From: a phage
Sequence record: PZ452610.1
DNA: 64,000 bases
Direction: 5' to 3' (one strand)
Each line of letters starts with the position of its first letter. The first letter of the stretch is position 1. The notes under the pieces were generated by a model. That model was not told the DNA's origin. It saw only the letters and a program-made list of their open reading frames with translations, and made no database searches. This document shows positions 7,505-56,759 of this stretch, one piece after another. Position numbers and translations under genes: made by a program.

Positions 7505-8251
7505 TTAACCTTTAATCAGTTGGAATAATGATGCGCTAAGTGGTAAGCCACGTTTCAATTTTAATTTACCAATGAAACCAATCTTTTCAAAACGTTGCAG
7601 ACCTTGGATAACTTTATCATATGTATCGAAAAGCGATTCAGCGTCAGTTAATTTAGTTTTAGTTTTCCAGTCAGAGCCTTTAAGAAGAACGTTGAGTTTA
7701 GTAAGTTCATGGCCTTCTGCTTGATGTGAGCCATTAATGCGTGCTTTCAAAGCAACAATTCTAAGTTTAGATTCGTTAGATAAAGGTTGATTTTTCATCA
7801 TGTTCGCCATATGCTTAACACGATTTTCACGTTTTGCTCGGATTTTTAAAATAGTACCATAAACCTTTTTGATTTGGGCCCATTTCTTCTCGTCGAGATT
7901 AAGTTTCTCTACTTTACGGGCCGAAGGATTGGCGATACGTCTTGCAATGGCATCGCGTTTCCCAATAAGCTCTTCTAATGTTAAATCAGAACGAGCGGTG
8001 TTATATTTTTTCTTAACCGGGATAACATTACCTTTAATGTAGCCTATATCATTATTAAAACGTTCTAAGGATAATTTCTCACCTTCAACAGAGTTATTAA
8101 AAGATTCACCTGAGTAAGCGCAGACCTTTTGATCAAGAATGTTTTTAAGGTAATTAAAGTCTAAGTTAAAATCCTTAGAGCGTCTCTTCGCAGAAGCTCT
8201 GGTGTGGTCAAGACGACGATTGATTTTGTTAATTTTATTATTTGATAACAT
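7505..8251 (-). CDS. Basic 248-aa protein at the T4 srd position; possible Srd-like factor
   Basis: Lys/Arg-rich; size and position match T4 srd (about 250 aa); contains a CxYSG...N..K segment resembling a degenerate HNH motif. Confidence 0.4.
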   Translation of the reverse strand: MLSNNKINKINRRLDHTRASAKRRSKDFNLDFNYLKNILDQKVCAYSGESFNNSVEGEKLSLERFNNDIGYIKGNVIPVKKKYNTARSDLTLEELIGKRDAIARRIANPSARKVEKLNLDEKKWAQIKKVYGTILKIRAKRENRVKHMANMMKNQPLSNESKLRIVALKARINGSHQAEGHELTKLNVLLKGSDWKTKTKLTDAESLFDTYDKVIQGLQRFEKIGFIGKLKLKRGLPLSASLFQLIKG

Positions 8252-8304
8252 AATATTTTCCTCTGTCTTACGGACGTTAAGGTCATTTAGCTGATAAGCT
8301 TATA

Positions 8305-15421: not shown

Positions 15422-15670
15422 TTATTCTTTTTCGCGAATAATAATTACTTGTTGAGGCTGCTGAGCCGATTTCTTTTCGGCAACGATAGACCAAATTAAA
15501 GTTCCAATCCAACCAATCATCGTCCAGTTAAAGAGTAAAGATACAAAGAAGATTGCTGTTGTGCTTTTTGTGCCACGAATAAGTGCGATTACCCAAGGCA
15601 ACATGTAAATGATGATTGAACCAATACCTGCGATTAAAACTGCTACTGAACTAGCTACGAATAATTCCAT
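15422..15670 (-). CDS. Imm_superinfect-family small membrane protein (superinfection immunity-like)
   Basis: 82 aa, two TM segments; motif AIFFVSLLFNWTMIGWIGTLIW resembles the GWxGIGWI signature of the superinfection-immunity family. Confidence 0.55.
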   Translation of the reverse strand: MELFVASSVAVLIAGIGSIIIYMLPWVIALIRGTKSTTAIFFVSLLFNWTMIGWIGTLIWSIVAEKKSAQQPQQVIIIREKE

Positions 15671-18644: not shown

Positions 18645-19007
18645 TTAAAAGAATTTAAATTTTTTCTTGGTTCGTTCATTAAAAGCTTGTTGTACTTGCA
18701 TTGTAACACATTTTTCAACATGTGGTGCAAGTTCTGCTTTTCTGTCCTGGTCAAGAACTGCAAAGTCCATTACGATTTTACCATCAACCCAGTCTAGTTT
18801 TGTAATATAGACTATATGATGAGAACCATCTTCAAGTGTAATCAGAATCTCTTGAATGACATTTTCCATTGCTGAACGGATAATTTTAAGAGATTCATTA
18901 AACACTCGTTCTTTGCGAATGTCTTCCCCTTCCGAAGAAGGGGATTCATCAACGATTTCTAGATTTAAATCATCGAGATTATTCATCGAAATCTTCCATT
19001 TCGTCAA
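18645..19007 (-). CDS. 40: gp40-like head vertex assembly protein
   Basis: 120 aa ORF between uvsX and 41 as in T4; start may be internal Met overlapping uvsX stop. Confidence 0.5.
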   Translation of the reverse strand: MTKWKISMNNLDDLNLEIVDESPSSEGEDIRKERVFNESLKIIRSAMENVIQEILITLEDGSHHIVYITKLDWVDGKIVMDFAVLDQDRKAELAPHVEKCVTMQVQQAFNERTKKKFKFF

Positions 19008-20151
19008 GGTCGTTTTCTATATCTGCTGCAGACGGAGCATCAGAAGTTTTAACCGGAACTTTAGTTGTTGCTTTGCAATTAATAAGGTCGTTAACAGCGT
19101 CATCAACTTCTTTAATAGAAGAGATAGCACCTAGTTTATATTTAGTTTCAATTGCATCTCGGAAAGGTTTGTGTTTAAACAAAGGTCCCCAGAATTCTAC
19201 ACAATCGGTAGCTTTAGCACGCCATGATTTCTCTTCACGAATCATTTCGCCTGTTTCTTCGTCAAGGAATTCGCGAGCATACCACCCGGCTTTAGGCTTA
19301 ACAACAAATCCAATTTCAGTTGCCATTTCTAACAAGCCACTGAATGGGTCAATACCGCCATCAAAATTAACCGTGATCGGGAAAGTAGATTTCTCTTTAA
19401 CTGTACGAGATTTTTCCGCTTTCAACGTAAAGTCATAACCGGTCAATTCTGTACCTTCTTTAACCTGACGTTTAGAGATAAAAAATACCGTGTTGGCAGA
19501 ATAAAGAATACCTGTACCACCGCCCATAATCTCTTTAGGATACAATCCGCCGATTTCCATTGCTGTATGGTTGATTGCAACACATGGAATATCTTTAATA
19601 GTCAGATAAGGAGTCACAATGCGGAACAGAGATTTAAGTGCCTTAGCACGAGACATATCACCTACAACTTTCTCGTTCAATGCATCTTCGGTTTCTTTCT
19701 TAGATGCAGTATTACCAATCGAGTCAATAAAGATAATAACTTTATCACCGCGTTCAATAGCGTCAAGCTGATTAGTCATATCAACTTTAAGTTGTTCGAC
19801 AGATTGAATCGGAGTATGAACTACACGGTCTAAATCAACACCCATTGAACGAAAATAAGATTCCGAAGCACCGAATTCTGAGTCATAAAACAAACAGATT
19901 GCATCTTTATATTTCTTCATATACGCTGCAACCATAGTTAGTCCAAACAACGTTTTAAAGTGTTTAGAAGGAGCAGCAAAAATAGTTAAGCCTGATTGCA
20001 ACCCGGCATTCAGTGCACCACCTAATGCAATATTCAACATCGGAATACGAGTAGGGACTTCATCGCGATTATTAAACAGCTTAGACTTAGTCAAGTCTGC
20101 AGTCATTTTAGAAGTAGAAGCTTTAATCAGACGAGATTTTAAATCAGACAT
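18979..20151 (-). CDS. uvsX: UvsX recombinase (RecA-like)
   Basis: 390 aa; RecA-fold ATPase (Walker A in FAAPSKHFKT region); acidic C-terminal tail; T4 position. Confidence 0.95.
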   Translation of the reverse strand: MSDLKSRLIKASTSKMTADLTKSKLFNNRDEVPTRIPMLNIALGGALNAGLQSGLTIFAAPSKHFKTLFGLTMVAAYMKKYKDAICLFYDSEFGASESYFRSMGVDLDRVVHTPIQSVEQLKVDMTNQLDAIERGDKVIIFIDSIGNTASKKETEDALNEKVVGDMSRAKALKSLFRIVTPYLTIKDIPCVAINHTAMEIGGLYPKEIMGGGTGILYSANTVFFISKRQVKEGTELTGYDFTLKAEKSRTVKEKSTFPITVNFDGGIDPFSGLLEMATEIGFVVKPKAGWYAREFLDEETGEMIREEKSWRAKATDCVEFWGPLFKHKPFRDAIETKYKLGAISSIKEVDDAVNDLINCKATTKVPVKTSDAPSAADIENDLDEMEDFDE

Positions 20152-20249: not shown

Positions 20250-20798
20250 TTAACGAGCCCATTTGATGATTTCTGTAATCAAATCATTACGTTCGCTTGC
20301 ATTAAATCCTATAACTTTGTTAGCACCATCATGATTAAGTAATTGATACGTTTGGATTTTGTTATGAATTGCAAACTCTTCAAAATGTGAAATGACTGTA
20401 TTAAAACCGAATGAAGACAAAGTGATAAGGTCGTCTTCAAAACTTTCAGTCATTTCGTTACGTGTTAAAATAATTGTGAACACATCATGGTTTTGGCAAA
20501 GACGAACATAATCCTGTTCATAAACGTCAAGAACCGAGTCCGCATCTTGTCGAATACGTCCATAAACCCAGTTACTAATATATCCACGGTCTAACAGATA
20601 AATCTTAGTAGGGTCTAAATAATTCAACATCGTTTCGAAACAGCCAACTTCATTTCGAGACTTAACATCGAAACGTCCATCAACTGTTCGTTTAGGGAAA
20701 TCAATCTTTACATATCTTTCACTAATTTCCATTATGTCATTAATGAAAGTTGTTTTACCAGCATTATCCGGGCCATCTACTAAAATAATTTTAGCCAT
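20250..20798 (-). CDS. P-loop nucleotide kinase, thymidylate-kinase-like
   Basis: 182 aa; Walker A GPDNAGKTT and downstream LDRGYISNWVYG resembling the TMK DRY...S motif. Confidence 0.55.
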   Translation of the reverse strand: MAKIILVDGPDNAGKTTFINDIMEISERYVKIDFPKRTVDGRFDVKSRNEVGCFETMLNYLDPTKIYLLDRGYISNWVYGRIRQDADSVLDVYEQDYVRLCQNHDVFTIILTRNEMTESFEDDLITLSSFGFNTVISHFEEFAIHNKIQTYQLLNHDGANKVIGFNASERNDLITEIIKWAR

Positions 20799-20799
20799 T

Positions 20800-21699
20800 T
20801 TATTCCTCGATTACGACATCTTCATATTTAGGTATATTATACGGTGAAGAAATTAAAGCATTAAAGTAGATGAACTCACCAAGACCTGGATGAAATACTT
20901 CTTCAGGATTTTCGAAATATTGAATCTTCGGACGTCCTTTAAGAATTTGATAGTACTCAGTTTTAGTTGGTTTAAAAATTCGAATCAACGCTTCTTCAGG
21001 ATACTTATTTCTGTCGAAGCTATTATTTGGATCGGTTATATAAAGCGGTTGACCTAATTGAATTGCGCATTCAACAACTTGTTCAAAACGATAGCATGGG
21101 TCACTAATTCGAAATGGATGAAAAATACCATCTAGATGAATAGGAGCCAAATCACCTACAAGACGCTGCATGATGGAAGGACGTATAACTTTCTGCGTTA
21201 CGATAATCTTATTACCATCTGCACCTGCGTTAACCAGCACTTCTTTTTGACGTTCATTCAACACAGTAGTTTGAAGTGAACGATTAACCGACAACATATC
21301 AGTTTTTAAGAATTCGTCAATATAAAAACGTGGTTTATTAGGGTCTGCAGTGATATTGAAATTGAATTCCACATCAAAAGCGCCGTCATATCCAGTGATA
21401 TCTGTGATTAAAAAATCACAATCATAATAAGCAATTAATGAATCAACAACAAATTCATTTTCAGACCAGAAATATTTACGAGTGTTATACGCGTTATCTT
21501 TATACCATAATGGAACAAACTTAAATTCTGGAAAAAGACGTTCGCATTCTTTAATATCAGATGCATTACGTGGATATGTAATCACATCACCCGGATTAGC
21601 ACGGTGCAAATGAAGTTGGAAGTTGCCATCCTTAAGGATAGCATACTGTCCAGTTTCATAAGACCGCATACTCAAGATTGGTACGCGGAAAATAGCCAT
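20800..21699 (-). CDS. Hypothetical protein, 299 aa, at the T4 beta-gt position
   Basis: ORF between uvsX and 42 where T4 encodes beta-glucosyltransferase; no similarity to beta-gt recognised. Confidence 0.55.
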   Translation of the reverse strand: MAIFRVPILSMRSYETGQYAILKDGNFQLHLHRANPGDVITYPRNASDIKECERLFPEFKFVPLWYKDNAYNTRKYFWSENEFVVDSLIAYYDCDFLITDITGYDGAFDVEFNFNITADPNKPRFYIDEFLKTDMLSVNRSLQTTVLNERQKEVLVNAGADGNKIIVTQKVIRPSIMQRLVGDLAPIHLDGIFHPFRISDPCYRFEQVVECAIQLGQPLYITDPNNSFDRNKYPEEALIRIFKPTKTEYYQILKGRPKIQYFENPEEVFHPGLGEFIYFNALISSPYNIPKYEDVVIEE

Positions 21700-22415
21700 T
21701 AGTCAAGGAATCCTTTAACATAATCAAAATCACGTTCAAACACATGGGCACTTACCATGGTATGAGTATAATCACCAACTTCTACCCCACATTCGTTAGC
21801 GATATAATGAAGTAATTTTCCTTGGAGATAAAAATCCAACTGCATAACAACAGCACAGTTCTGAGAACGCATATGACAGTGGGTATAAAGCTTACCATCA
21901 CGAATATAATAAGTCACTGAGTCAGTACATGGATATTCAAGCGTTTCGTCCGAATCAAGCAAAGCCTGATCAGAACTTTCTAGAATTTGGAACACAACTC
22001 TTCGAGAGTTAGGCTTCTCTTTAAGTTCTTTTAGAAGAGCTGGTAATTGGGCCGCAATGCGAGGACCATAGAAAGTGTTGAAGTTCGCCGGCAAAACATC
22101 TGATTTTGGTTTAGAAATAAATTTAGCGACATTAGGATATGCCTTAAACGCTTCTTCTGCGTTGGTACCACCAGAAATCATAAACTTCCAGAAGTCTTCG
22201 GCATATTCATAAGAGATGCGGTTAATACGTGGGTCGGTCATTTTGAATGATGATGGAGTGTCAACAACTACTGTCATAGACCCAATTTCATTACAACGTC
22301 CAATACGAGAATCAGTTACGAATTCCGGGTTTTCTAAAATTTCACGATTGACTGCTTTAAATGCGGTTTGAAAATCTGCGGCTTTGATATATTTCATTGT
22401 GTTATGTTTTCCCAT
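21699..22415 (-). CDS. 42: dCMP hydroxymethylase gp42 (thymidylate synthase family)
   Basis: 238 aa; TS-family motifs SRRVVF, active-site PC (EYPCTDS), MRSQN; T4 position. Confidence 0.8.
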   Translation of the reverse strand: MGKHNTMKYIKAADFQTAFKAVNREILENPEFVTDSRIGRCNEIGSMTVVVDTPSSFKMTDPRINRISYEYAEDFWKFMISGGTNAEEAFKAYPNVAKFISKPKSDVLPANFNTFYGPRIAAQLPALLKELKEKPNSRRVVFQILESSDQALLDSDETLEYPCTDSVTYYIRDGKLYTHCHMRSQNCAVVMQLDFYLQGKLLHYIANECGVEVGDYTHTMVSAHVFERDFDYVKGFLD

Positions 22416-22457
22416 GTTTACCTCAATACAATTTATTATATACTCAATTCGTAAAGC

Positions 22458-22697
22458 TTATTTGAATTTCTTGACAATGTTGATATAACGTAAAGCTTCA
22501 GCATCGATACTTCCAAGAACACTATGAAGAAATGCATCAGCGTAGTATTCCAATTGAACAGGTTCTTTAATCACTTTAGCCGCTTTAGTTTCAAACAGGC
22601 CCATCAGGGCCTTTTTAAGAATTTGTTCGTTGCTGTTAATTTTCATAGTCAAAATCTCTTCATTAAGTTGGTGGTTAAAAGTTTTTCTAGAAATCAT
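22458..22697 (-). CDS. Hypothetical protein, 79 aa
   Basis: ORF in operon context. Confidence 0.45.
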   Translation of the reverse strand: MISRKTFNHQLNEEILTMKINSNEQILKKALMGLFETKAAKVIKEPVQLEYYADAFLHSVLGSIDAEALRYINIVKKFK

Positions 22698-23869
22698 TCC
22701 GGGTACCTCAAAGCGTCATCAGAGTTAGTTATATCAATAATAGATATAGAGTTTTCTGCTAACCCGTTTTTAGATAATTGACGTTTATAATATCTTTCAC
22801 AATATGTACACGTCGTCCCGCAGATTTCATTAGCACAATCGAAATCTGGATGTCTGAACCACCTTTTTTCTAAAAAGCCATCTAACAAAGAGGTTTCAAT
22901 ATTTACTGTATGTGAAAACTCAGTTTCGTTTTCAAGAGTGAAAATAGTCTCTAAAGGCTTCCACAGTTCTAACAAATTACCTTCAAACTTTTCAGAAGCG
23001 TATGCTTCAAGAACTTTCAAAATGTAGTCTGTGCTACCTGTACGTCCTGAAACTTTGAATTGAGTGATACCAATATCATTATAAAGTTTCAAATCTTGAG
23101 GACGAACAAAACGAGTTCTCAACCAGTTAAATGGGTCTGTATCACGAGCTTTAATACAGTGCTGCATAGGATATCCGTTTAAGGATTTAGCATCATCAGC
23201 TGTAACATCAGTACTATGGAAAATATAGCAAGAGTCACGATAGCTACAATGTGTTGTATACCCTTTACCAGCATTAGAACAGAACTCATTTACAAGAACT
23301 TCAAATATTATATTGTTCTTATTGCAAAACTCTGCTGCACGCTTCAGGAAAGAAACTGAACGGTTCTTATGAATTCCACAGCAGACCTTTTTGATATTAT
23401 ACTGGTCATGCAAGTATTTGATTTGAGTTACAGCATCGACATGTAGAATTGTTGAAACTTCAATCTCAATGTCTTTATTGACTTCACGAACAATTTCCAT
23501 AACAACAGGGTTAGCGATAGTAATACGCCATACGCCTATTGACCAAAGATACTGAACATAATCCTGAATAGCTTTCTTCTTCCACCCAACTAGTTCTCTT
23601 TTTGAACCAGGATTTATCGTGTTGAGTGTATAGTTAAAGCAAATACCTAATTCGTTACAACGTTTAACGTAATCTTCTAACATCTTTTTGTCAACGTCAG
23701 GAAGCCTAAAATCAGGTCTGGCTGCTACAAAAGCCATTTCTCTTGTAGAGCCGTATACTTCGTTTATCAAGCTATTAGGATAAGTTTTATTGAGCTCTAC
23801 GATTTTATCAAGAAGAGCTAAATCAAAATTCGTTCCAATTTTAAAAGTATTCATTTTTTTGCATCTCAC
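22694..23869 (-). CDS. Hypothetical protein, 391 aa, with C-terminal Cys cluster
   Basis: C-terminal CANEICGTTCTYC (C-x4-C-x3-C-x2-C); family not recognised; sits inside the sugar-nucleotide cassette. Confidence 0.6.
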   Translation of the reverse strand: MRCKKMNTFKIGTNFDLALLDKIVELNKTYPNSLINEVYGSTREMAFVAARPDFRLPDVDKKMLEDYVKRCNELGICFNYTLNTINPGSKRELVGWKKKAIQDYVQYLWSIGVWRITIANPVVMEIVREVNKDIEIEVSTILHVDAVTQIKYLHDQYNIKKVCCGIHKNRSVSFLKRAAEFCNKNNIIFEVLVNEFCSNAGKGYTTHCSYRDSCYIFHSTDVTADDAKSLNGYPMQHCIKARDTDPFNWLRTRFVRPQDLKLYNDIGITQFKVSGRTGSTDYILKVLEAYASEKFEGNLLELWKPLETIFTLENETEFSHTVNIETSLLDGFLEKRWFRHPDFDCANEICGTTCTYCERYYKRQLSKNGLAENSISIIDITNSDDALRYPE

Positions 23870-23910
23870 GTTAATTGATGCGATGGTTTTTGCAGGTCTT
23901 ACTTAAATTA

Positions 23911-24312
23911 TTATAGATTCGGTTTATATGATTTAAATGTTTCGAATTCGCCTTTATTCATAAGAGCTTTGAATTCGTCAGGACGCATAGCTTTGTCGTC
24001 GATAATCCAATCATATACTGGTTTATGTGTTAGCAAATTATGGTACTTCAAACCAATGTTTTCCAAGTTCTGAATCAGACTTGGGAGAATGTCAATTGCT
24101 ATACGACCAGGACCTACTGACTTCATACCGCGAGCAGTGTAAAGCGTTATGGTATGCCCTGCATCATACAGGGCATTAATAGCAGTCACCATTTCGACGT
24201 CTGGTTTGAAGTTCACGTAATCACGATTGTTATTCCACTCTGTTATACAATCATCGACATCAAAACAAAGATTAAGCATGTTTTCTACACGGTGCATTAG
24301 ATTCGTTCCCAT
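23911..24312 (-). CDS. HAD-superfamily phosphatase-like protein, 133 aa
   Basis: N-terminal FDVDDCIT (HAD motif I-like), TLYTARG (motif II), KPVYDWIIDD (motifs III/IV). Confidence 0.6.
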   Translation of the reverse strand: MGTNLMHRVENMLNLCFDVDDCITEWNNNRDYVNFKPDVEMVTAINALYDAGHTITLYTARGMKSVGPGRIAIDILPSLIQNLENIGLKYHNLLTHKPVYDWIIDDKAMRPDEFKALMNKGEFETFKSYKPNL

Positions 24313-25982
24313 TGATGAGTGATATCGCCACCGATTGGACGATAAGAAACACCAGTTTCTTTATCAGTTAGTACCCATTTACCAGGATTTTTTGTAATCA
24401 GAGTAGCCGTTACAGGTTCTGCTACGTCATAACTAATAGAGCCGTCCTGAAGTACACGGCCCATGTTACGTAATTGCTTAGTCAGAAGTTCCATACCTTT
24501 ATAATATGCGGCTACCGCTTTAAGTGGATTATTCTTGAAATAACCACCTAATGCAATCCAGATAATTGCTACAGCCAAATGATGATACTCGTTAAACGAA
24601 CTCATCTTTCCATATTTGTAAACTAATGGATTGATGTTAATAGTCACATTACAAGTTGTTTCGTCAATAGTAAACTGTCCCCAGGTCGGATTAGCGTTGA
24701 ATTCATCATAACCTGAAACAGCATAAAGCACTTTAGCTTCATCATACAATTTTGGCCCGTAAATCTTGGTTTCGCCAAAATATCCACGAGGGTCGATAAA
24801 CTTGACTTCGCCGTTATCAGTAATCATAGTATTACTGAAGTTCGGGTCACCGTGAATAACAGAGTACTGTCCCTGAGAACGGGTATGATAACGAATAAGA
24901 TGTTCTAAAGCTTGCTTCAGCATTGGCTTCAGACGTCCAATCTTAGTGTAGTTCACGTGTGTGATTTTACCAAATGAATCAATCAATGGCTGAATGCTTT
25001 CACAACGATCAATAACTTTCGTATAGAACTCTTTAGTGAAATCACGGCGAACAGTTTCAGGACTTACAAAATAAGTGTCTGTGCTGAATTTCAGTGCATC
25101 TAAAATTGCATCAACAATTTGTGGACGAGCAAGACTTGATTTGGATTTAATATATTCAAATGCTGGCTTACCTTTAATACGTTCCATTTCAAAATTATTT
25201 TCATTTACCGAAACTAACTGAGGAACTGAATCTGATTTCACTTTCAAATACCATGAAATCTCATCTTTTTGAAGAGCTCGACCTTGTTCGGTTAACGCGA
25301 ATTTAGTTACAGTTTCTTCGCCAATTTCAACTGCATTAAAACTACGATTAAGTTCACGAACTTCATGAGCTTTTTCAAGTTTAGGCATATCACCTAAATC
25401 AATTAGATTCATAAGCTCTGATTTATTGAATGCACTGCCGTAAAGGAATTCTACGAAATCACGTCCTTTGCAGTATTCATGAATTTCCTCATCAGTAGAA
25501 CCCATGTAGAATTCCCAGTCTTTGAACTGATAAATTCCTACAACATTACCGCCTGTTGAACCTACGTTAGTGATATTTTCACCATCGAAATTATATCGAC
25601 ATTCATCACCCTTAACATAGATTGCGTTAACATTCCAAGACCATGAACCAAAATCAGGAATAATATCACACCAGTTAACAATTACGTTATGGCCATCTAA
25701 ATCTTTGTATAATTTAGCAAGAGCATAAGCAGAACCATACGCTTCATCAACTGTACGAATAGTCACATTGAACCCTTCTTGCTCGCAATAAGCTCGAACA
25801 GTTTCAGCAAATTTTGAATGAACTACTACAATAATTTCATCTGCGCCAAGGTCAGAATAAATTGTATACAAATTGCTCAGAATAGTGTCTTGTTTATAGT
25901 TAACAAGAACTTTTGGAATATGATGCGTTATTGGATACAAACGAGTTGCCAGTCCAGCACCAAGAATAACAGCTTTTTTCAT
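24297..25982 (-). CDS. Bifunctional sugar-1-phosphate nucleotidyltransferase / APH-type sugar kinase
   Basis: 561 aa; N-terminus KAVILGAGLATRLYPITHHIPKVLV (NTP-transferase G-x-G-x-R-L); C-terminus HGDPNFSNTMITDNGEVKFIDPRGYFG (APH/ChoK catalytic loop). Confidence 0.75.
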   Translation of the reverse strand: MKKAVILGAGLATRLYPITHHIPKVLVNYKQDTILSNLYTIYSDLGADEIIVVVHSKFAETVRAYCEQEGFNVTIRTVDEAYGSAYALAKLYKDLDGHNVIVNWCDIIPDFGSWSWNVNAIYVKGDECRYNFDGENITNVGSTGGNVVGIYQFKDWEFYMGSTDEEIHEYCKGRDFVEFLYGSAFNKSELMNLIDLGDMPKLEKAHEVRELNRSFNAVEIGEETVTKFALTEQGRALQKDEISWYLKVKSDSVPQLVSVNENNFEMERIKGKPAFEYIKSKSSLARPQIVDAILDALKFSTDTYFVSPETVRRDFTKEFYTKVIDRCESIQPLIDSFGKITHVNYTKIGRLKPMLKQALEHLIRYHTRSQGQYSVIHGDPNFSNTMITDNGEVKFIDPRGYFGETKIYGPKLYDEAKVLYAVSGYDEFNANPTWGQFTIDETTCNVTININPLVYKYGKMSSFNEYHHLAVAIIWIALGGYFKNNPLKAVAAYYKGMELLTKQLRNMGRVLQDGSISYDVAEPVTATLITKNPGKWVLTDKETGVSYRPIGGDITHQWERI

Positions 25983-26023
25983 GTTGTGGTCCTCATTGGT
26001 AAGTAGGTGTATTGTACACTATT

Positions 26024-26167
26024 CTAGTTAAAGCATTCATACTTTGCTTGTAGTCCAATCATAATCCATCCAATTACAAGTGTTGGAATCATTACTGGAG
26101 CCGTTAAGCTCCAGTAGATAGTCATGACAAGCATCAATAGTAAAAGTCCTATTGTTATTGCTTTCAT
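26024..26167 (-). CDS. Possible small membrane peptide, 47 aa (not in ORF track)
   Basis: ATG overlaps the TGA of the SIS gene (ATGA coupling); MKAITIGLLLLMLVMTIYW... hydrophobic. Confidence 0.3.
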   Translation of the reverse strand: MKAITIGLLLLMLVMTIYWSLTAPVMIPTLVIGWIMIGLQAKYECFN

Positions 26168-26799
26168 TGTTCGCCTCGTAACATGGCACCTAGTGCACCG
26201 CCTGGATGGAACTTAAGAAAGTCATTAGAGGTAAATCCACGTTCAGACGAAAGGTTGATAGCAAACGTATCGATAAGCGCTAACAACAATGTAGTGGACA
26301 TAGTCGGAGCCAGAGAATTCTCATCAACCTCTACCGCGATGCCTGTACAGAAAGAGTAATCAAAAAGGGCTTCATTTTCTTGCGGAATGTCTGGGTTACA
26401 ATGCAACAGAATCTGTTTGACATTTGGACGAATCATTTTAAGATGCTTAGCCACGCCTATCATTTCTTCAGTCTTACCAGAACGACTAATATGAATCAAC
26501 ACATCATTAGGCGCAATGAATCCTGCATCACCGTGAGAATAATGCCCAGTGTTCAAGTACATACTCGGGATACCGAGTGAAGCAAATGTCTCAGAAGCTT
26601 TAGTTGCAATATTAGCATTCTTACCAACACCTGTAATAATTACTCGGCTTTCATAATTACTAAGTCCAGGGCGTCGAAGAGTTTCTAGAATAGCATTATA
26701 ACGAGCAGGGTTTTGACTAATTACTTTGGCCATAGCGGCCAAAGAAGAAGCTTGTTTTATGATTGCGTCAATAGCGATAGTAATAGGAGTAGTTTTCAT
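26164..26799 (-). CDS. Arabinose-5-phosphate isomerase-like SIS-domain protein (KdsD/GutQ type, no CBS domains)
   Basis: 211 aa; VIITGVGKNANIATKASETFASLGIPS...HGD...HISRSGKT and C-terminal HPGGALG parallel the E. coli KdsD SIS domain. Confidence 0.8.
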   Translation of the reverse strand: MKTTPITIAIDAIIKQASSLAAMAKVISQNPARYNAILETLRRPGLSNYESRVIITGVGKNANIATKASETFASLGIPSMYLNTGHYSHGDAGFIAPNDVLIHISRSGKTEEMIGVAKHLKMIRPNVKQILLHCNPDIPQENEALFDYSFCTGIAVEVDENSLAPTMSTTLLLALIDTFAINLSSERGFTSNDFLKFHPGGALGAMLRGEQ

Positions 26800-26839: not shown

Positions 26840-29551
26840 TCAAAAATCGAACATATCGAACAGAGATGCTTTCTTCTCGTAATCGAGTTTCGCTGCTGAT
26901 GTGAATCCTTCAAGTGGTTTAATAAATGTCTTCTCAAGGAGAACAGTGTAGTCCATCCAATGAAGTACGTCATCTTTAATTAAATCTGTGATTTCAGTAC
27001 CAGAAGGCCATGCGATACATTTATCACCGAACGGGTTTCCTTCACGTAAAGGCAGAACATATACTTTTTCACCTTCTACAACTTGTGGAGCATCAATATT
27101 ACCTTTGATAGCTCTGTTATATGTCAGAATTCCACGAATATGGAACGGACATTTAGGACCAGGGAATCCACCTACATCATATTTAGCAATGTTATTCGCA
27201 GAAGATACCGACGCGATGCTAATATAATTCAATTGACGGAATTCTTTTTCAAACTCTTTAAAATATTCTTGTAATGATTCTTCACCTTCTTGAAGCATAC
27301 GACGAATACATTCTTTAAGAGCTTTCTGTACTGCTTTAGGGGTCGAAGATTTCTGAGTCTCTAGACCCATGATTTTGAGTTTAGGCTCAGCGTAACGAGT
27401 ACCTTCCATATCCCACACGTTTAATGCGTAACGTTTCTTACCAGTCCAGAATCCACCAATACCTTTAGAACCGAGCGGAGGACCAGCGATAGCTTCTCGG
27501 TCCATGAACATTAAGTGTTGTTTATTGTTCATGTATTCACACATTTCACGGAAACCTCTATCAATAGCAGGTTCCATACGTTCACGAGCGAACTTATCTA
27601 AGAAGTCTACCCAATGGTTGGTATCACGGAATTTAGATTCACCAACCTTATCGATAATTTTATCAGCAGATACGTAAATAGAGTCTGTATCACCATAAAG
27701 AACGAAAGCTTCACCTTCTGTACCACAAACTTCGTTCAGATATTCATTAACTTTACGTTCAATCCACTGTAAAGCCATTTGACCAAATGTTGTGATTGCA
27801 GTAGCATTACGCAAATCGTAATAACGGAACCAAACGTTGCCAAGTGCACCATAAAGTGAGTTGATAAGCAATTTACGGTTAATTTGTGCAGTCATACCTG
27901 CAACTTCAGTACGTTGAGCTCTAAACAACATTTCATTAAGAGATTTAGCAGACAACTTTTTAATCTTTTCTTTAATCTCGTCAGTGAAGTCGAAACGATA
28001 ATCAACATCTAATGGTTCGTCAACAGAAAGATTAGGATTATGCAACGCCTCTTTAATTATTTCACCATTACGTTGAGCCGCAAGCATATAACCTTTATGT
28101 TCTTTACGTTGATTAAAGACCTTAGTGATTTCAGTTGGAACTACACCATCACGGTCTTTATAATACATCATGCCATTAGGAGAACAACTGTACACATCTG
28201 AAGGACGTTCAGCGATTGCGTTAATATAATCATGCAGTGGAGCTACTTTAAACGTTCCTGCTATTGTTTCCGGGCTAATATTCACTTGGCGAATAATACT
28301 TGGATACAGAGATGTAAGGTCGAAACTCATTACATATTTGTATCGATTTGGAATAGGTTCCTTAACAAAAGCGCCAGGATAAGGTTGAACCGGGTGAGAA
28401 CGACCTTGTGGAATCACCTTGTTCTGCTCTTTAAGGCTATTAAAAATAATAGCATCCCATGTTTTAATTGGGCTAAACACAGATTGAATCTGTATCTTAG
28501 CATAATAACCCATGTCCAAACTCAAGTTGATGAACTGACGCTTAGCATCAATTTGCAATACACGATACACGTCGATAATGTTATAAGAAATATATCGTTG
28601 GTGATTGCTTTCACGAAGCTTAGAAATAGGGCCGTCATATTTCAGTTTACCAACGTTCAATTCAAATTCTGAAATGTAATCTAGAGAATACGACGGTTGA
28701 TTGGTAAAAGAGAATTTTTTGTAAAGGTCGATATAATCAAGAACAGAGATACCGAACAATGTAATGATTTCACGAGAACCATACATGTTTTCGATAACTT
28801 TAACACGAGTTTTACGATGCGGTGATAAACGTTTCGCAGTAGATTCGCCAAAAATATTCTTGATTCGGTTATACACATATGGAATATCAAATGACTCAAC
28901 GTTCCATCCAGTCAAAATGACAGGAGTTTTCTGTTGCCAGAAGTTGAGATATTCCATCAACAATTCTTTTTCGTTATCGAACGGCATATAAATGATTTTA
29001 TCGATAATTTCAGATGGAACTTCATCACCGCCTTGTTCTTGAAGCTTAGCAGCGATTTCAATAGACCATTCTTCTACATTACCATATGGAGAATTCAATA
29101 GATCAAATACGTAGAACCTGTCGTCAATTGAGTCATAATGGGTGATAGCATCAATCGGATGTTTTGCTTGTGATGGCTCAGGGAACCCATCCGGAGATGT
29201 TACTTCGATGTCGAAGTTAGCCACACGAATTTTTGTATGGTCGTATTTGATTTCATAGTTATAAGTGTCAGACAAATACGCCAATTTGAAATCGTCCATG
29301 CCAAGTGCTTCAAGTCCGATATCTTCCATGCGTTTAATCCATTGGGAGGCATCACGCATATTAGCGAACAACTTACGAGTACACGGCTTACCGTAGATAT
29401 CGAAATATTTCGTAGCCTGACTTTCCGGACAATGAGCAAACAGTGATGGTTTATATTCTACTTCACGAGTACGTTCACGGCCATTAGAATCGATGTAACG
29501 TTCAAAAATTGAATCACCAATCTGTTCAACCGTTAAGTAAAATTCTTTCAT
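26840..29551 (-). CDS. 43: DNA polymerase gp43 (family B); matches RB69 gp43 from memory
   Basis: 903 aa; N-terminus MKEFYLTVEQIGDSIFERYIDSNGRERTREVEYKPSLFAHCP..., exo motif FDIEV, pol motifs DTDS and KKRY. Confidence 0.98.
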   Translation of the reverse strand: MKEFYLTVEQIGDSIFERYIDSNGRERTREVEYKPSLFAHCPESQATKYFDIYGKPCTRKLFANMRDASQWIKRMEDIGLEALGMDDFKLAYLSDTYNYEIKYDHTKIRVANFDIEVTSPDGFPEPSQAKHPIDAITHYDSIDDRFYVFDLLNSPYGNVEEWSIEIAAKLQEQGGDEVPSEIIDKIIYMPFDNEKELLMEYLNFWQQKTPVILTGWNVESFDIPYVYNRIKNIFGESTAKRLSPHRKTRVKVIENMYGSREIITLFGISVLDYIDLYKKFSFTNQPSYSLDYISEFELNVGKLKYDGPISKLRESNHQRYISYNIIDVYRVLQIDAKRQFINLSLDMGYYAKIQIQSVFSPIKTWDAIIFNSLKEQNKVIPQGRSHPVQPYPGAFVKEPIPNRYKYVMSFDLTSLYPSIIRQVNISPETIAGTFKVAPLHDYINAIAERPSDVYSCSPNGMMYYKDRDGVVPTEITKVFNQRKEHKGYMLAAQRNGEIIKEALHNPNLSVDEPLDVDYRFDFTDEIKEKIKKLSAKSLNEMLFRAQRTEVAGMTAQINRKLLINSLYGALGNVWFRYYDLRNATAITTFGQMALQWIERKVNEYLNEVCGTEGEAFVLYGDTDSIYVSADKIIDKVGESKFRDTNHWVDFLDKFARERMEPAIDRGFREMCEYMNNKQHLMFMDREAIAGPPLGSKGIGGFWTGKKRYALNVWDMEGTRYAEPKLKIMGLETQKSSTPKAVQKALKECIRRMLQEGEESLQEYFKEFEKEFRQLNYISIASVSSANNIAKYDVGGFPGPKCPFHIRGILTYNRAIKGNIDAPQVVEGEKVYVLPLREGNPFGDKCIAWPSGTEITDLIKDDVLHWMDYTVLLEKTFIKPLEGFTSAAKLDYEKKASLFDMFDF

Positions 29552-40236: not shown

Positions 40237-40560
40237 TCAATCTTCTATGATATCAGAGTCGTATCCTAATGAAATCAAGGACTTTTTAAACTCTGCAATA
40301 TTCTTTTGTTTCTTATCATTTAAAAATATGACAGGATAACGAATATTAAGTGAAGTGAATCCTGCACGTTTAGCAAGAGATACGATTAAAGGTCGGTCAT
40401 ATTCAATCTTACCATTATTAGTGAGGACTTTATAAAATGTATAAGGAGCATTGAGCTCCTTTAAAAGTTTTGTAACAGTATAACATCCTGGACAACGTCC
40501 TACTTCTTCAGGGATGCCATAAATTTCAATCTTGTTCTTTAAGTTCGAGTTTTGTTCCAC
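40237..40560 (-). CDS. Glutaredoxin/NrdH-like redoxin; start uncertain
   Basis: Thioredoxin-fold segment KIEIYGIPEEVGRCPGCYTV (CPGC active site); likely GTG start near 40560 after AAGGA; track ORF extends to 40689. Confidence 0.55.
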   Translation of the reverse strand: MEQNSNLKNKIEIYGIPEEVGRCPGCYTVTKLLKELNAPYTFYKVLTNNGKIEYDRPLIVSLAKRAGFTSLNIRYPVIFLNDKKQKNIAEFKKSLISLGYDSDIIED

Positions 40561-41172: not shown

Positions 41173-41643
41173 TTAATCATGTTTCCACACCCCATTGGTA
41201 TTCGACCAAAGTCGCTGATTATCTGATCCTCGCCACAGTTTTTTGGTCGGAAGATTTTTCTCATACTTCCCATCAATAATAACATCAACATATTTAAGCA
41301 TTTCTAGTTGTTTAATATCTTCAAACTTATATCCTGTCCACAACCAAATGCTTTTATTGGGATAAATATTTTTTACTGTTTGAACAATGCAATGAACAAC
41401 ATCTCTATTATCAGGATAGAGAGGGTCGCCTCCGGTTATAGTCAATCCTTCTATATAATCATTATTCAAACATTCAATTAATTGTTCTAGTGTCTCTCCA
41501 GTGAATGGAGCACCATTTCTAGCGTTCCATGTTGATTTATTATAACACCCTTCACATTTATGCAAACAACCTGTAACGAAAAGAACGACCCTGCAACCAG
41601 GGCCATTCACAAAATCGCAAGGATAAAATCTATCATAATTCAT
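41173..41643 (-). CDS. nrdG: Anaerobic ribonucleotide reductase activating protein NrdG (radical SAM)
   Basis: 156 aa; Cys cluster CLHKCEGCYN; immediately downstream of nrdD. Confidence 0.9.
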   Translation of the reverse strand: MNYDRFYPCDFVNGPGCRVVLFVTGCLHKCEGCYNKSTWNARNGAPFTGETLEQLIECLNNDYIEGLTITGGDPLYPDNRDVVHCIVQTVKNIYPNKSIWLWTGYKFEDIKQLEMLKYVDVIIDGKYEKNLPTKKLWRGSDNQRLWSNTNGVWKHD

Positions 41644-56265: not shown

Positions 56266-56759
56266 AATAACGGTTCCCAATCAACAATCACAATTTCTAG
56301 TTTAGTGGAATACGTATCTAAAATCTCTTCGATGACATCCCAGTTTCCGCCACCGATACCTGCACCAATTCTTGGCATATAAATTACAGGCTTTGTTATC
56401 TTATTCTTTCCGAATTCATTTAATTCTATTATACAATTCATTAAAGCAGAGTACTCAAAATTAGGTCCCGGCTCAAACTGCGTATAAAGATTAAAGCAAT
56501 AAGCTTTATGGGTCTTAAAATATTTTTCATAAACCGAATAAGTCCCGAGTTTAGACTCGTCTCCGAATTCGGTTTGAAGTTTATCGGCTTCCAGAATTTT
56601 TGGATAAGCCTTTGCTAATTGTCCTGCCACACCGGCGCCCATTGTATGAAAACAATTACACCCATGAGCAATATTATTACCTTTAGAAAACAGGGCGACA
56701 ATATCGCCCTTGATATAGTTTTTAATCACTTGCTGCAAGTCCTCTAGTATAAGAGTCAA
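56262..56759 (-). CDS. Macro-domain protein, putative ADP-ribose binding/hydrolase (tk.4 position); non-ATG start
   Basis: 165 aa; Gly-rich motifs NIAHGCNCFHTMGAGVAGQL and PRIGAGIGGGNW typical of macro domains. Confidence 0.65.
   Translation of the reverse strand: MTLILEDLQQVIKNYIKGDIVALFSKGNNIAHGCNCFHTMGAGVAGQLAKAYPKILEADKLQTEFGDESKLGTYSVYEKYFKTHKAYCFNLYTQFEPGPNFEYSALMNCIIELNEFGKNKITKPVIYMPRIGAGIGGGNWDVIEEILDTYSTKLEIVIVDWEPLL

Follow-up and report, generated by a model that had tools for sequence, protein, structure and literature searches.

The stretch analysed here (the window) comprises 64,000 nucleotides of the phage sequence record PZ452610.1 and belongs to a Mosigvirus. Between uvsX and the DNA polymerase gene, at positions 20250–26799, it carries a cluster that very probably encodes the RB69-type pathway replacing all DNA cytosine by mono- or di-arabinofuranosyl-5-hydroxycytosine. 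The nucleoside diphosphate (NDP)-arabinose pathway of this cluster is known biology (Thomas 2018; Mahler 2025; He 2026; Lee 2026), and an earlier sequence-only reading of the window, which had offered a gene-by-gene donor pathway as an inference of its own, was preceded in this by published work. The cluster explains the resistance of RB69 to restriction enzymes and CRISPR as well as its genetic isolation from T4. The only proven hydroxylase of the pathway needs O2, yet the phage destroys dCTP and infects largely anaerobic gut hosts. The cluster also encodes a Cys-rich protein of the Peptidase_U32 family (RB69 gp50), and the comparative evidence somewhat favours gp50-type U32 proteins being O2-independent, prephenate-dependent pyrimidine C5 hydroxylases that act on DNA precursors or DNA. 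For enteric T4-like phages, U32 would be the anaerobic twin of the flavin/O2-dependent dCMP hydroxylase, and many uncultured phages of low GC content would depend on it alone for a hydroxylated base that is then glycosylated.

Proposed pathway and gene order

The ThyA-fold enzyme of the cluster would hydroxylate dCMP at C5 with flavin and O2, and a T4-type dNMP kinase encoded outside the region would phosphorylate the product for incorporation at replication, as shown in close orthologs. By homology, the SIS protein would convert ribulose 5-phosphate (Ru5P) to arabinose 5-phosphate (A5P). As in the HY126 orthologs, the kinase half of a fusion protein of 561 amino acids (aa) would turn A5P into arabinofuranose 1,5-bisphosphate (Araf-1,5-bisP), the HAD protein would take off the 5-phosphate to leave Araf-1-P, and the nucleotidyltransferase half of the fusion would produce UDP-Araf. 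The 299-aa GT-B enzyme presumably adds the first arabinose to the 5-hydroxyl group, and the second is presumably added by a homolog of RB69 ORF003c. The 391-aa U32 protein would provide a second, O2-independent route to a 5-hydroxylated pyrimidine with prephenate as the oxygen donor, like RlhA, TrhP and UbiU/V, and this route would allow phage DNA synthesis where the host is without oxygen and the flavin/O2 enzyme is of no use. The prephenate of Mosigviruses would come from host PheA/TyrA, and other genera would draw on a chorismate mutase (CM) of their own.

The cluster is flanked by uvsX (18979–20151) and the DNA polymerase gene (26840–29551), and all of the open reading frames (ORFs) that the sequence-only reading had placed between the two exist where it put them. 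There are eight solid ORFs and one doubtful ORF, all on the minus strand, with overlaps of 1–16 nt:

20250–20798 (−): TMK-like P-loop nucleotide kinase (RB69 gp45 equivalent), 182 aa; phrog_761
20800–21699 (−): predicted GT-B fold glycosyltransferase (RB69 gp46:47), 299 aa; AlphaFold2 (AF2) fold and Foldseek
21699–22415 (−): ThyA-fold protein, predicted flavin/O2-dependent dCMP 5-hydroxylase (RB69 gp48), 238 aa; near-identity to 9iqc/9ir2
22458–22697 (−): gp49 homolog (RB69 gp49), 79 aa; phrog_8601
22694–23869 (−): Cys-rich Peptidase_U32 protein, predicted to carry Fe-S (RB69 gp50), 391 aa; Pfam U32
23911–24312 (−): HAD phosphatase (RB69 gp51, AfhF-like), 133 aa; TIGR01689, 9iqw
24297–25982 (−): NTP-transferase and kinase fusion (RB69 gp52:53, AfhE-like), 561 aa; NTP_transferase, APH-type
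26037–26189 (−): doubtful 50-aa ORF in the spacer between the SIS and fusion genes, in the region of RB69 ORF054c; mechanical ORF only
26164–26799 (−): SIS-only predicted D-arabinose-5-phosphate isomerase (RB69 gp55), 211 aa; SIS, KpsF/GutQ, KdsD

The cluster matches E. coli O157 typing phages 3/6/13 at every nucleotide (100% identity); for RB69 gp45–gp55 the figure is 98.4%, and at least 80% of the segment is found in 152 phage records. Its base composition is ordinary for the window.

The modified base is 5-hydroxycytosine

The sequence-only reading had taken the 238-aa protein for gene 42, the dCMP hydroxymethylase, an assignment that fails on comparison. The protein has the fold of ThyA (Pfam Thymidylat_synt, 2.3e-15), and 233 of its 238 residues (98%) are identical to those of PDB 9iqc/9ir2, with the crystal structure 9iqu giving a like result; identity to RB69 gp48 is 99.2%. 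Identity to T4 gp42 is only 25% over 218 residues, and the T4 gp42 structures fall outside the top 60 PDB matches. Residues E160/N186/D194 correspond to L143E/D169N/N177D of E. coli ThyA, the published signature of 5-hydroxy-dCMP (5hodCMP) synthases (PMC13326640). T4 gp42 retains Asp at ThyA position 169, where the window protein has Asn, and C163 of the window protein aligns with the catalytic C146 of E. coli ThyA.

RB69 gp48 binds an FMN-like flavin and was shown to make 5-hydroxy-dCMP by co-expression with a dNMP kinase, comparison with a 5-hydroxy-dC (5hodC) standard and 18O2 labelling (PMC13326640). The use of flavin and O2 is shown for the HY126 ortholog as well. RB69 DNA carries beta-D-Araf-(1-3)-alpha-D-Araf attached directly at O5 of 5-hydroxy-dC (PMC13326640). 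Judged by its sequence, the 238-aa protein is a predicted flavin/O2-dependent dCMP 5-hydroxylase (5hodCMP synthase) and not a dCMP hydroxymethylase. Since the RB69 ortholog makes 5-hydroxy-dCMP, the modified base is arabinosyl-5-hydroxycytosine and not arabinosyl-5-hydroxymethylcytosine (ara-hmC).

The Thomas 2018 model, with gene 42 as dCMP hydroxymethylase, arabinosyl-5-hydroxymethylcytosine in the DNA and a donor made via free arabinose, is by now scarcely credible. The match to the Thymidylat_synt fold agrees with it, many records annotate a dCMP hydroxymethylase, and the MALDI and high-performance anion-exchange chromatography (HPAEC) data of 2018 were read as ara-hmC. However, the distance from T4 gp42 and the Asn in place of Asp169 do not suit a hydroxymethylase, and nuclear magnetic resonance (NMR), liquid chromatography–mass spectrometry (LC-MS) and 18O2 labelling show a direct C5–O–arabinose link and 5hodCMP synthesis, which refutes ara-hmC for RB69. 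The free-arabinose route is likewise contradicted by the HY126 enzymes, which pass through Ara-1,5-bisP. The 2018 assignment is called erroneous in a 2026 survey (PMC13390438). The sequence-only reading, which had mentioned reports of arabinosyl-hmC in RB69-type DNA, thus repeated an assignment now regarded as an error; its expectation that pentosylation, most likely arabinosylation, replaces glucosylation was sound, and its choice of 5-hydroxymethylcytosine as the base was not.

Absence of the T4 glucosylation genes was also noted by that reading. No homolog of T4 alpha-gt or beta-gt is found by tblastn across the 64-kb window at E<=1, and the gene 47–55 interval, from which alpha-gt had rightly been said to be absent, spans only ~1 kb. 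The accompanying statement that there is no beta-gt-like gene is accurate for sequence homologs of T4 beta-gt and misleading otherwise, as the 299-aa protein is a predicted GT-B enzyme.

The sugar branch, nucleotide kinase and arabinosyl transfer

The four sugar-gene calls of the sequence-only reading, together with its TMK-like kinase, are borne out by profile searches. The 211-aa SIS protein matches Pfam SIS (1e-10) and is nearest to A5P isomerases (NCBIfam KpsF/GutQ 2e-32, KdsD 7e-31). It scores 112.9 bits against a curated full-length cut-off of 203.7, because it consists of the SIS domain only and the tandem CBS domains are absent. Among solved structures it comes closest to the A5P isomerases 3etn (2.6e-25), 5uqi and 2xhz (3.5e-19), and its architecture resembles the SIS-only B. 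fragilis type, 3etn. The conversion of Ru5P to A5P by the RB69 SIS protein was assigned by homology (PMC13326640).

The 561-aa fusion matches NTP_transferase at residues 3–99 (1.3e-9), NCBIfam sugar-1-phosphate nucleotidyltransferases and PDB 1jyk, and phrog_4098 over its full length; its C-terminal part has weak, below-cut-off APH, fructosamine-kinase and RIO matches at residues 344–409. The HAD protein is identical to PDB 9iqw at 127 of 129 aligned residues (98%, E 1e-86) and belongs to the TIGR01689 capsule-phosphatase subfamily (2e-13). For HY126, as cited in PMC13326640, the kinase of AfhE converts A5P to Araf-1,5-bisP, AfhF converts Araf-1,5-bisP to Araf-1-P and the nucleotidyltransferase of AfhE converts Araf-1-P to UDP-Araf. 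According to He 2026, as cited in the same paper, SIS, AfhE and AfhF complete the synthesis of UDP-Araf. The sequence-only reading had named the right enzymes for its donor route, and it erred in their order and in the free arabinose, as the published route runs via Ara-1,5-bisP. Candidate sugar-pathway genes had already been pointed out by Thomas 2018, naming E. coli O157 typing phage 3.

The 182-aa kinase matches phrog_761, ‘thymidylate kinase’ (1.6e-45), and its Pfam, NCBIfam and PDB matches cover the P-loop only. It is conserved in all 5-hydroxycytosine (5hoC) clusters, and RB69 gp45 is labelled ‘nucleotide kinase’ from fold matches (PMC13326640).

The 299-aa protein, left unassigned by the sequence-only reading, has no sequence match in Pfam or PDB. 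Its AF2 model (pLDDT 94.6, pTM 0.89) has as top Foldseek matches MshA (3c4q), a mannosyltransferase (7qsg) and a sucrose-phosphate synthase (6kih), with probability 1.00 and TM-scores of 0.59–0.63; the same GT-B templates are given for RB69 gp46:47 (PMC13326640). The synteny of its gene is conserved. This predicted fold marks the protein as a GT-B glycosyltransferase and the putative first (alpha) DNA arabinosyltransferase on 5hoC. A second arabinosyltransferase gene, the RB69 ORF003c homolog, lies just upstream of the window, which begins inside gene 39.

The U32 protein

The 391-aa Cys-rich protein, also left unassigned by the sequence-only reading, belongs to Pfam Peptidase_U32 (PF01136; 7.5e-11, 42.2 bits where the cut-off is 22.4). 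A sequence search of PDB with it gives no match, and the top PDB fold match of its AF2 model (pLDDT 91.9, pTM 0.91) is the U32 structure 5d88. The ORF as listed opens with GTG at 23869, and its homologs start at the ATG at 23854 (MNTFKIG), which is likely the true start.

Characterised U32 proteins carry Fe-S and are needed for O2-independent, prephenate-dependent hydroxylations: RlhA for ho5C2501 in 23S rRNA, TrhP for ho5U34 in tRNA, and UbiU/V in anaerobic ubiquinone synthesis. A profile of the gp50 family compared with the E. coli paralogs (hhalign) gives a probability of 81% for RlhA (E 1.2e-5, 205 columns), 12% for TrhP and 5% for UbiU; because the matches to UbiU and TrhP are weak, only the RlhA comparison was used. 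Ten Cys residues are invariant in 54 homologs of 47–87% identity (C163, C182, C197, C208, C214, C238, C345, C350, C354 and C357). C208 and C214 align with RlhA C169 and C176, both of which are essential for ho5C formation.

The gp50-type proteins form a small clade of their own: among 1.84 billion representatives, a cut-off of E<=1e-30 gives 474 clusters, and one of E<=1e-3 no more than 1,701. They are single-domain proteins of ~360–390 aa with their own NEFC and CX4CX3CX2C motifs, and they consist of the U32 domain only, without the DUF3656 and the long C-terminal region of RlhA. Between genera, no other protein of the cluster is better conserved than U32: its identity to the window protein is 82–89%, against 74–83% for the hydroxylase, 51–72% for the glycosyltransferase (GT) and 42–73% for the fusion.

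Chorismate mutase, DAHP synthase and gp49 next to U32

Several related phages carry a CM gene at the U32 gene. In Erwinia phage Virsaitis27, a 114-aa type II CM (CM_2 1.7e-11, above cut-off) lies between the U32 and hydroxylase genes and overlaps each by 4 nt. By tblastn, CM is found in 54 phage records, always adjoining the hydroxylase or U32; these are phages of Serratia, Klebsiella, Yersinia, Enterobacter, Proteus, Edwardsiella, Erwinia, Providencia, Morganella, Pectobacterium, Kosakonia, E. coli (EcS1) and Shewanella. The cluster of Shewanella phage Thanatos-1 is rearranged, and U32 and CM are still adjacent and coupled there. Pfam confirms the CMs of the Yersinia, Serratia and Shewanella phages. 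Compared with the CM domains of E. coli PheA/TyrA, the phage CMs have the core residues R11, R28 and K39 of the E. coli enzyme (EcCM) invariant, S84 nearly so and Q88 in most.

Beyond the Straboviridae, shikimate-pathway genes stand no more than two genes from U32 in 7 of 29 lineages, or 8 of 30 with the Straboviridae included (lineages at 80% identity). The arrangements are as follows, by locus:

DAHP synthase (DAHPS) directly after U32: L010, L033
DAHPS-CM fusions near U32: L044/46/47, L048, L058
CM directly after U32: L050, L052/55/56/60/61
CM-DAHPS directly before U32: L065

This repeated linkage of U32 to CM and DAHP synthase points to prephenate chemistry. The gene order of L047 is GT, SIS, nucleotidyltransferase (NT)/kinase, DAHPS.CM, HAD and U32, so that by gene content the locus equals the cassette of Mosigviruses, except that shikimate enzymes replace the ThyA-fold hydroxylase. 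The DAHP_synth_1 gene of L010 was also considered as a KDO8P synthase, which would have linked it to A5P; it scores as a DAHP synthase (2.6e-70, 237 bits, vs 2.9e-17, 63 bits).

The gp49 gene of the window is translationally coupled to the U32 gene by an ATGA overlap, and gp49 occupies or adjoins the slot that CM has in other genera. Its invariant residues include YY-D-F-HS-G. Among Mosigviruses, gp49 is often truncated or frameshifted (many clusters of 47–58 aa, and two-piece tblastn matches in JS09, AV112 and TU01), which suggests that it is decaying or dispensable. The idea that gp49 is itself a diverged CM was rejected: the hhalign probability is 1.3%, and the two coexist in Yersinia phage phiR1-RT and Serratia phage 92A1. 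The 114-aa CM of Winklerviruses (L003 6158–6502, Virsaitis27; also Serratia phages CHI14/LC53 and Kosakonia phage Kc304) begins with RRINHTMNELV, which agrees with the N-terminus of gp49. Only a nine-residue N-terminal motif is common to the two proteins, apparently left over from gp49 at the start of the CM, and the gene looks like a gp49-remnant::CM fusion made by deletion.

U32 in uncultured phages

The sample comprised five metagenomic contigs and 49 IMG/VR loci with gp50 relatives, retrieved with 10 kb on either side of U32 and scanned with markers. All 15 Straboviridae-type loci have the ThyA-fold hydroxylase. The other 39 encode U32 at 34–56% identity, range in GC content from 22 to 59% and form 29 clusters at 80% identity; several are on contigs of 200–470 kb with PolIII-alpha replicases. 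No gene like the 5hodCMP synthase is present within 10 kb of U32 in these 39 loci, and the only protein of the thymidylate synthase (TS) family found there with a seven-sequence hidden Markov model (HMM; E<=1), in L035, was rejected as a hydroxylase (4.6e-41 to E. coli ThyA vs 3e-5 to the hydroxylase; a canonical ThyA-like protein). Counts within the same distance of U32 are:

GT_299-family transferase, often overlapping U32: 25–26 of 39 loci
NT/kinase fusion: 17 of 39 loci
SIS: 10 of 39 loci
dCMP deaminase: 9 of 39 loci
TS-family protein: 1 of 39 loci

Hosts and oxygen

Hosts were counted by the first word of the organism name, and all counts of hosts refer to the matches listed. In all, U32 is found in 222 phage records and the hydroxylase in 374. 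By host, U32 and hydroxylase counts are:

Klebsiella: 26 and 26
Proteus: 7 and 7
Yersinia: 6 and 6
Shigella: 14 and 15
Escherichia: 137 and 177
Acinetobacter: none among the matches listed and 57
Rhizobium: none among the matches listed and 20

The hosts of U32-bearing phages are all Enterobacterales or Shewanella, and U32 is absent from phages of strict aerobes, in each case among the matches listed. The HAD and hydroxylase genes of Acinetobacter phage fHyAci03 adjoin each other exactly at the point where U32/CM is inserted in enteric phages. The window also encodes nrdG of the anaerobic ribonucleotide reductase (41176–41643, −; 79% identity to T4) and nrdH (40240–40539, −; 86% to T4), and the phage is therefore equipped for anaerobic dNTP synthesis.

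Weighing the role of U32

Several points weigh against the proposed roles of the cluster and its U32 protein. The hydroxylase role proposed for U32 is drawn throughout from comparison. Of the four Fe-S Cys residues canonical for U32 (CX6CX15CX3-4C), just two align robustly; C238 falls on the third in the MAFFT alignment only, and there is no Cys at the canonical fourth place, for which the invariant C197 (a guess) or the C-terminal CX4CX3CX2C could stand in. Mosigviruses, this window included, have no CM by tblastn or HMM, and the prephenate link therefore rests on relatives. In the metagenomic contigs, a ThyA-like hydroxylase could sit beyond the 10 kb inspected on either side. U32 is missing from the cluster in Dhakaviruses of E. 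coli, VR5 for example, and is therefore not required for infecting a facultative anaerobe, and the correlation of U32 with host physiology is not phylogenetically independent. RB69 gp50 is listed in a table as ‘sugar or heterocycle reductase’ and not discussed (PMC13326640). For the sugar transfer, the first arabinosylation by the 299-aa GT is putative and lies outside the reconstitutions of Lee 2026 (PMC13326640).

Two tblastn or HMM matches to CM in the window were judged spurious, one at 56293–56460, antisense to a real gene, and one at 7508–8299, an HMM score of 15.7 bits in fragments.

U32 is unlikely to serve the sugar branch or to be a ‘sugar or heterocycle reductase’, for instance by tailoring the pentose, instead of hydroxylating a base. 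In Foldseek, its TIM barrel is similar to flavin reductases, MTHFR for one, and to sugar-phosphate enzymes as well, and its gene is located between the HAD/sugar genes and the base genes. However, UDP-Araf synthesis is already complete with SIS, AfhE and AfhF (He 2026, as cited in PMC13326640), and Acinetobacter phages and Dhakaviruses arabinosylate without U32. Against a sugar role there are also the recurrent linkage to CM/DAHP synthase and, in other contigs, the linkage of U32 to dCMP deaminase, deoxynucleoside kinase (dNK), NT5C and TMK.

Slightly less probable still is an RlhA/TrhP-like RNA hydroxylase that tunes translation via host or phage rRNA/tRNA and is unrelated to DNA modification. 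RlhA is the closest characterised paralog, and every characterised U32 enzyme of nucleic acids acts on RNA. Conversely, the gp50-type proteins lack the DUF3656 and C-terminal region of RlhA, belong to the small clade separate from the canonical families (1,701 matches, as above) and are always encoded within cassettes for DNA modification or deoxynucleotides, where their gene often overlaps that of a DNA glycosyltransferase.

The phage CM and DAHP synthase might instead serve CmoA-type carboxy-SAM (Cx-SAM) synthesis or the supply of aromatic amino acids, with their adjacency to U32 a coincidence. Phage CmoA does make Cx-SAM from prephenate for DNA carboxymethylation (PMC12783734). A search for CmoA/CmoB as the prephenate consumer found no homolog in the CM/DAHPS loci and gave only a weak methyltransferase match in L008; moreover, CM/DAHPS are never more than two genes away from U32, in arrangements independent of one another, and the translation of CM is coupled to that of U32, all of which makes this reading very improbable. 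That U32 is truly a peptidase of the collagenase type, as its family is named and as numerous GenBank entries say, can be set aside almost entirely, since the Fe-S Cys residues are invariant, the characterised E. coli members are hydroxylation factors, the context is nucleotide metabolism and the U32 family has no known protease mechanism.

If U32 is the prephenate-dependent hydroxylase proposed here, no U32 hydroxylase before it would have been connected with DNA, and the relatives with CM and DAHP synthase would be a rare case of viruses that supply a cofactor-like oxygen donor through shikimate-pathway enzymes of their own. U32 would also offer a small, soluble, single-subunit model for prephenate-dependent hydroxylation, for which no in vitro assay had been reported as of 2024 (PMC10990095), and a marker from which glycosylated hydroxy-pyrimidine DNA could be predicted for uncultured anaerobe phages. 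The matter is relevant to phage therapy, as the modification status under gut conditions sets the sensitivity to host defences. The Discussion of Lee 2026 names the RlhA/TrhP pyrimidine hydroxylation pathways without a tie to gp50 (PMC13326640), and no literature linking U32 or CM with phage arabinosylation was found in a search that covered sources other than He 2026 and Mahler 2025.

Relation to characterised systems

The nearest system is the arabinosyl-5hoC pathway of RB69, HY126 and Bas46-47 (RB69 gp45–gp55; Afh; Aat). RB69 is of the same genus, with the same gene order and 98% nucleotide identity, and there is no substantive difference from its pathway, except that the 299-aa and 561-aa genes are intact here and split in the RB69 reference. 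The GenBank record of RB69 divides the GT (ORF046/047; L001 3551–4451) and the fusion enzyme (ORF052/053; L001 7048–8734) because of single-base sequencing errors.

T4 glucosylation (gp42, alpha-gt and beta-gt) occupies the same slot between uvsX and gene 43. There, too, dCMP is modified by an enzyme of the TS fold ahead of replication, and the sugar is attached afterwards by GT-B enzymes. T4 relies on folate-dependent hydroxymethylation and on host UDP-glucose, whereas the present cluster would use flavin/O2 hydroxylation and UDP-Araf made by phage enzymes.

With RlhA, TrhP, UbiU and UbiV, gp50 shares the U32 TIM barrel, a conserved Glu and the two RlhA-essential Cys residues; it has an extra C-terminal Cys cluster, and its phage relatives show a genomic coupling to prephenate supply. 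Those proteins act on RNA or quinone, whereas the presumed substrate of gp50 is a DNA precursor. The pairing of an O2-requiring with an O2-independent enzyme for the same product is found in TrhO/TrhP, UbiI-H-F/UbiU-V and T4 NrdAB/NrdDG; the redundancy of the ThyA-fold hydroxylase and U32 would be a further case, deduced here from the gene content.

Other arrangements of gp50-type U32 genes

L012 (7028–10000, 13073–14179) and L042 have three consecutive genes, for a GT_299-family GT, for U32 and for a TET-associated glycosyltransferase (TAGT); dUTPase/DCD and UDP-galactopyranose mutase are encoded close by. This order suggests that other sugars, such as Galf, are placed on a hydroxyl group that would be made by U32. 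On several large contigs of low GC content (up to 466 kb), the gene directly before U32 is dCMP deaminase (L007 9447–11086, L011 7504–9083, L063–L065), and U32 is itself followed by a conserved 248–254-aa protein without a Pfam match; these contigs also encode a PolIII-alpha replicase, UDG, TMK and radical SAM/SPASM proteins. One possibility is that some members of the clade hydroxylate dUMP and not dCMP.

The gp50-type U32 of L008/L009 (10001–16360) is on a bacterial-looking contig, with a dockerin/GH43 protein and glutamate-cysteine ligase. Its neighbours are NT5C, an NMN transporter, a deoxynucleoside kinase, a nucleoside deoxyribosyltransferase, a radical SAM/SPASM protein and a second, divergent U32 paralog, and the locus may be a cellular nucleoside-modifying island. 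One uncultured phage has an IS605 OrfB/Cas12f-like TnpB gene between the NT/kinase gene and U32 (L043 8695–9957).

Further features of the locus and its relatives

The scan for promoters and terminators at 20–27 kb gave 22 sites vs 26.8 expected from shuffled sequence, which is not above chance. Promoter-like elements include a TTTAAA-16-TATAAT site at 23910–23937 (−), overlapping the end of the HAD gene just upstream of the U32 gene, and a GCTTTA...TATAAT (MotA-box-like) element that precedes the hydroxylase gene at ~22420–22455. The doubtful 50-aa ORF at 26037–26189 has no family match; RB69 annotates a 36-aa ORF at that spot. A homolog of imm is present at 15425–15670 (−; 65% identity to T4 imm), ~11 kb from the T4 position, which is between genes 42 and 43.

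The cluster of Dhakavirus VR5 (L013 2471–7589) is shorter, with a 166-aa ORF, the NT/kinase, HAD, TMK-like, hydroxylase and GT genes, and imm adjoins its polymerase gene; U32 is absent, and existing annotations show no full SIS gene. Misleading annotations recur across related records, among them ‘GlmU’, ‘phosphoheptose isomerase’, ‘peptidase’ and ‘dCMP hydroxymethylase’. Homing endonucleases have entered the cluster in several phages: Seg-type genes are found at the HAD–U32 junction in Winklervirus (L003 4352–4990) and Tegunavirus (L016 2707–3345), and Mosigviruses NRG-P0074 and a20 carry a homing-endonuclease insertion of ~700 bp.

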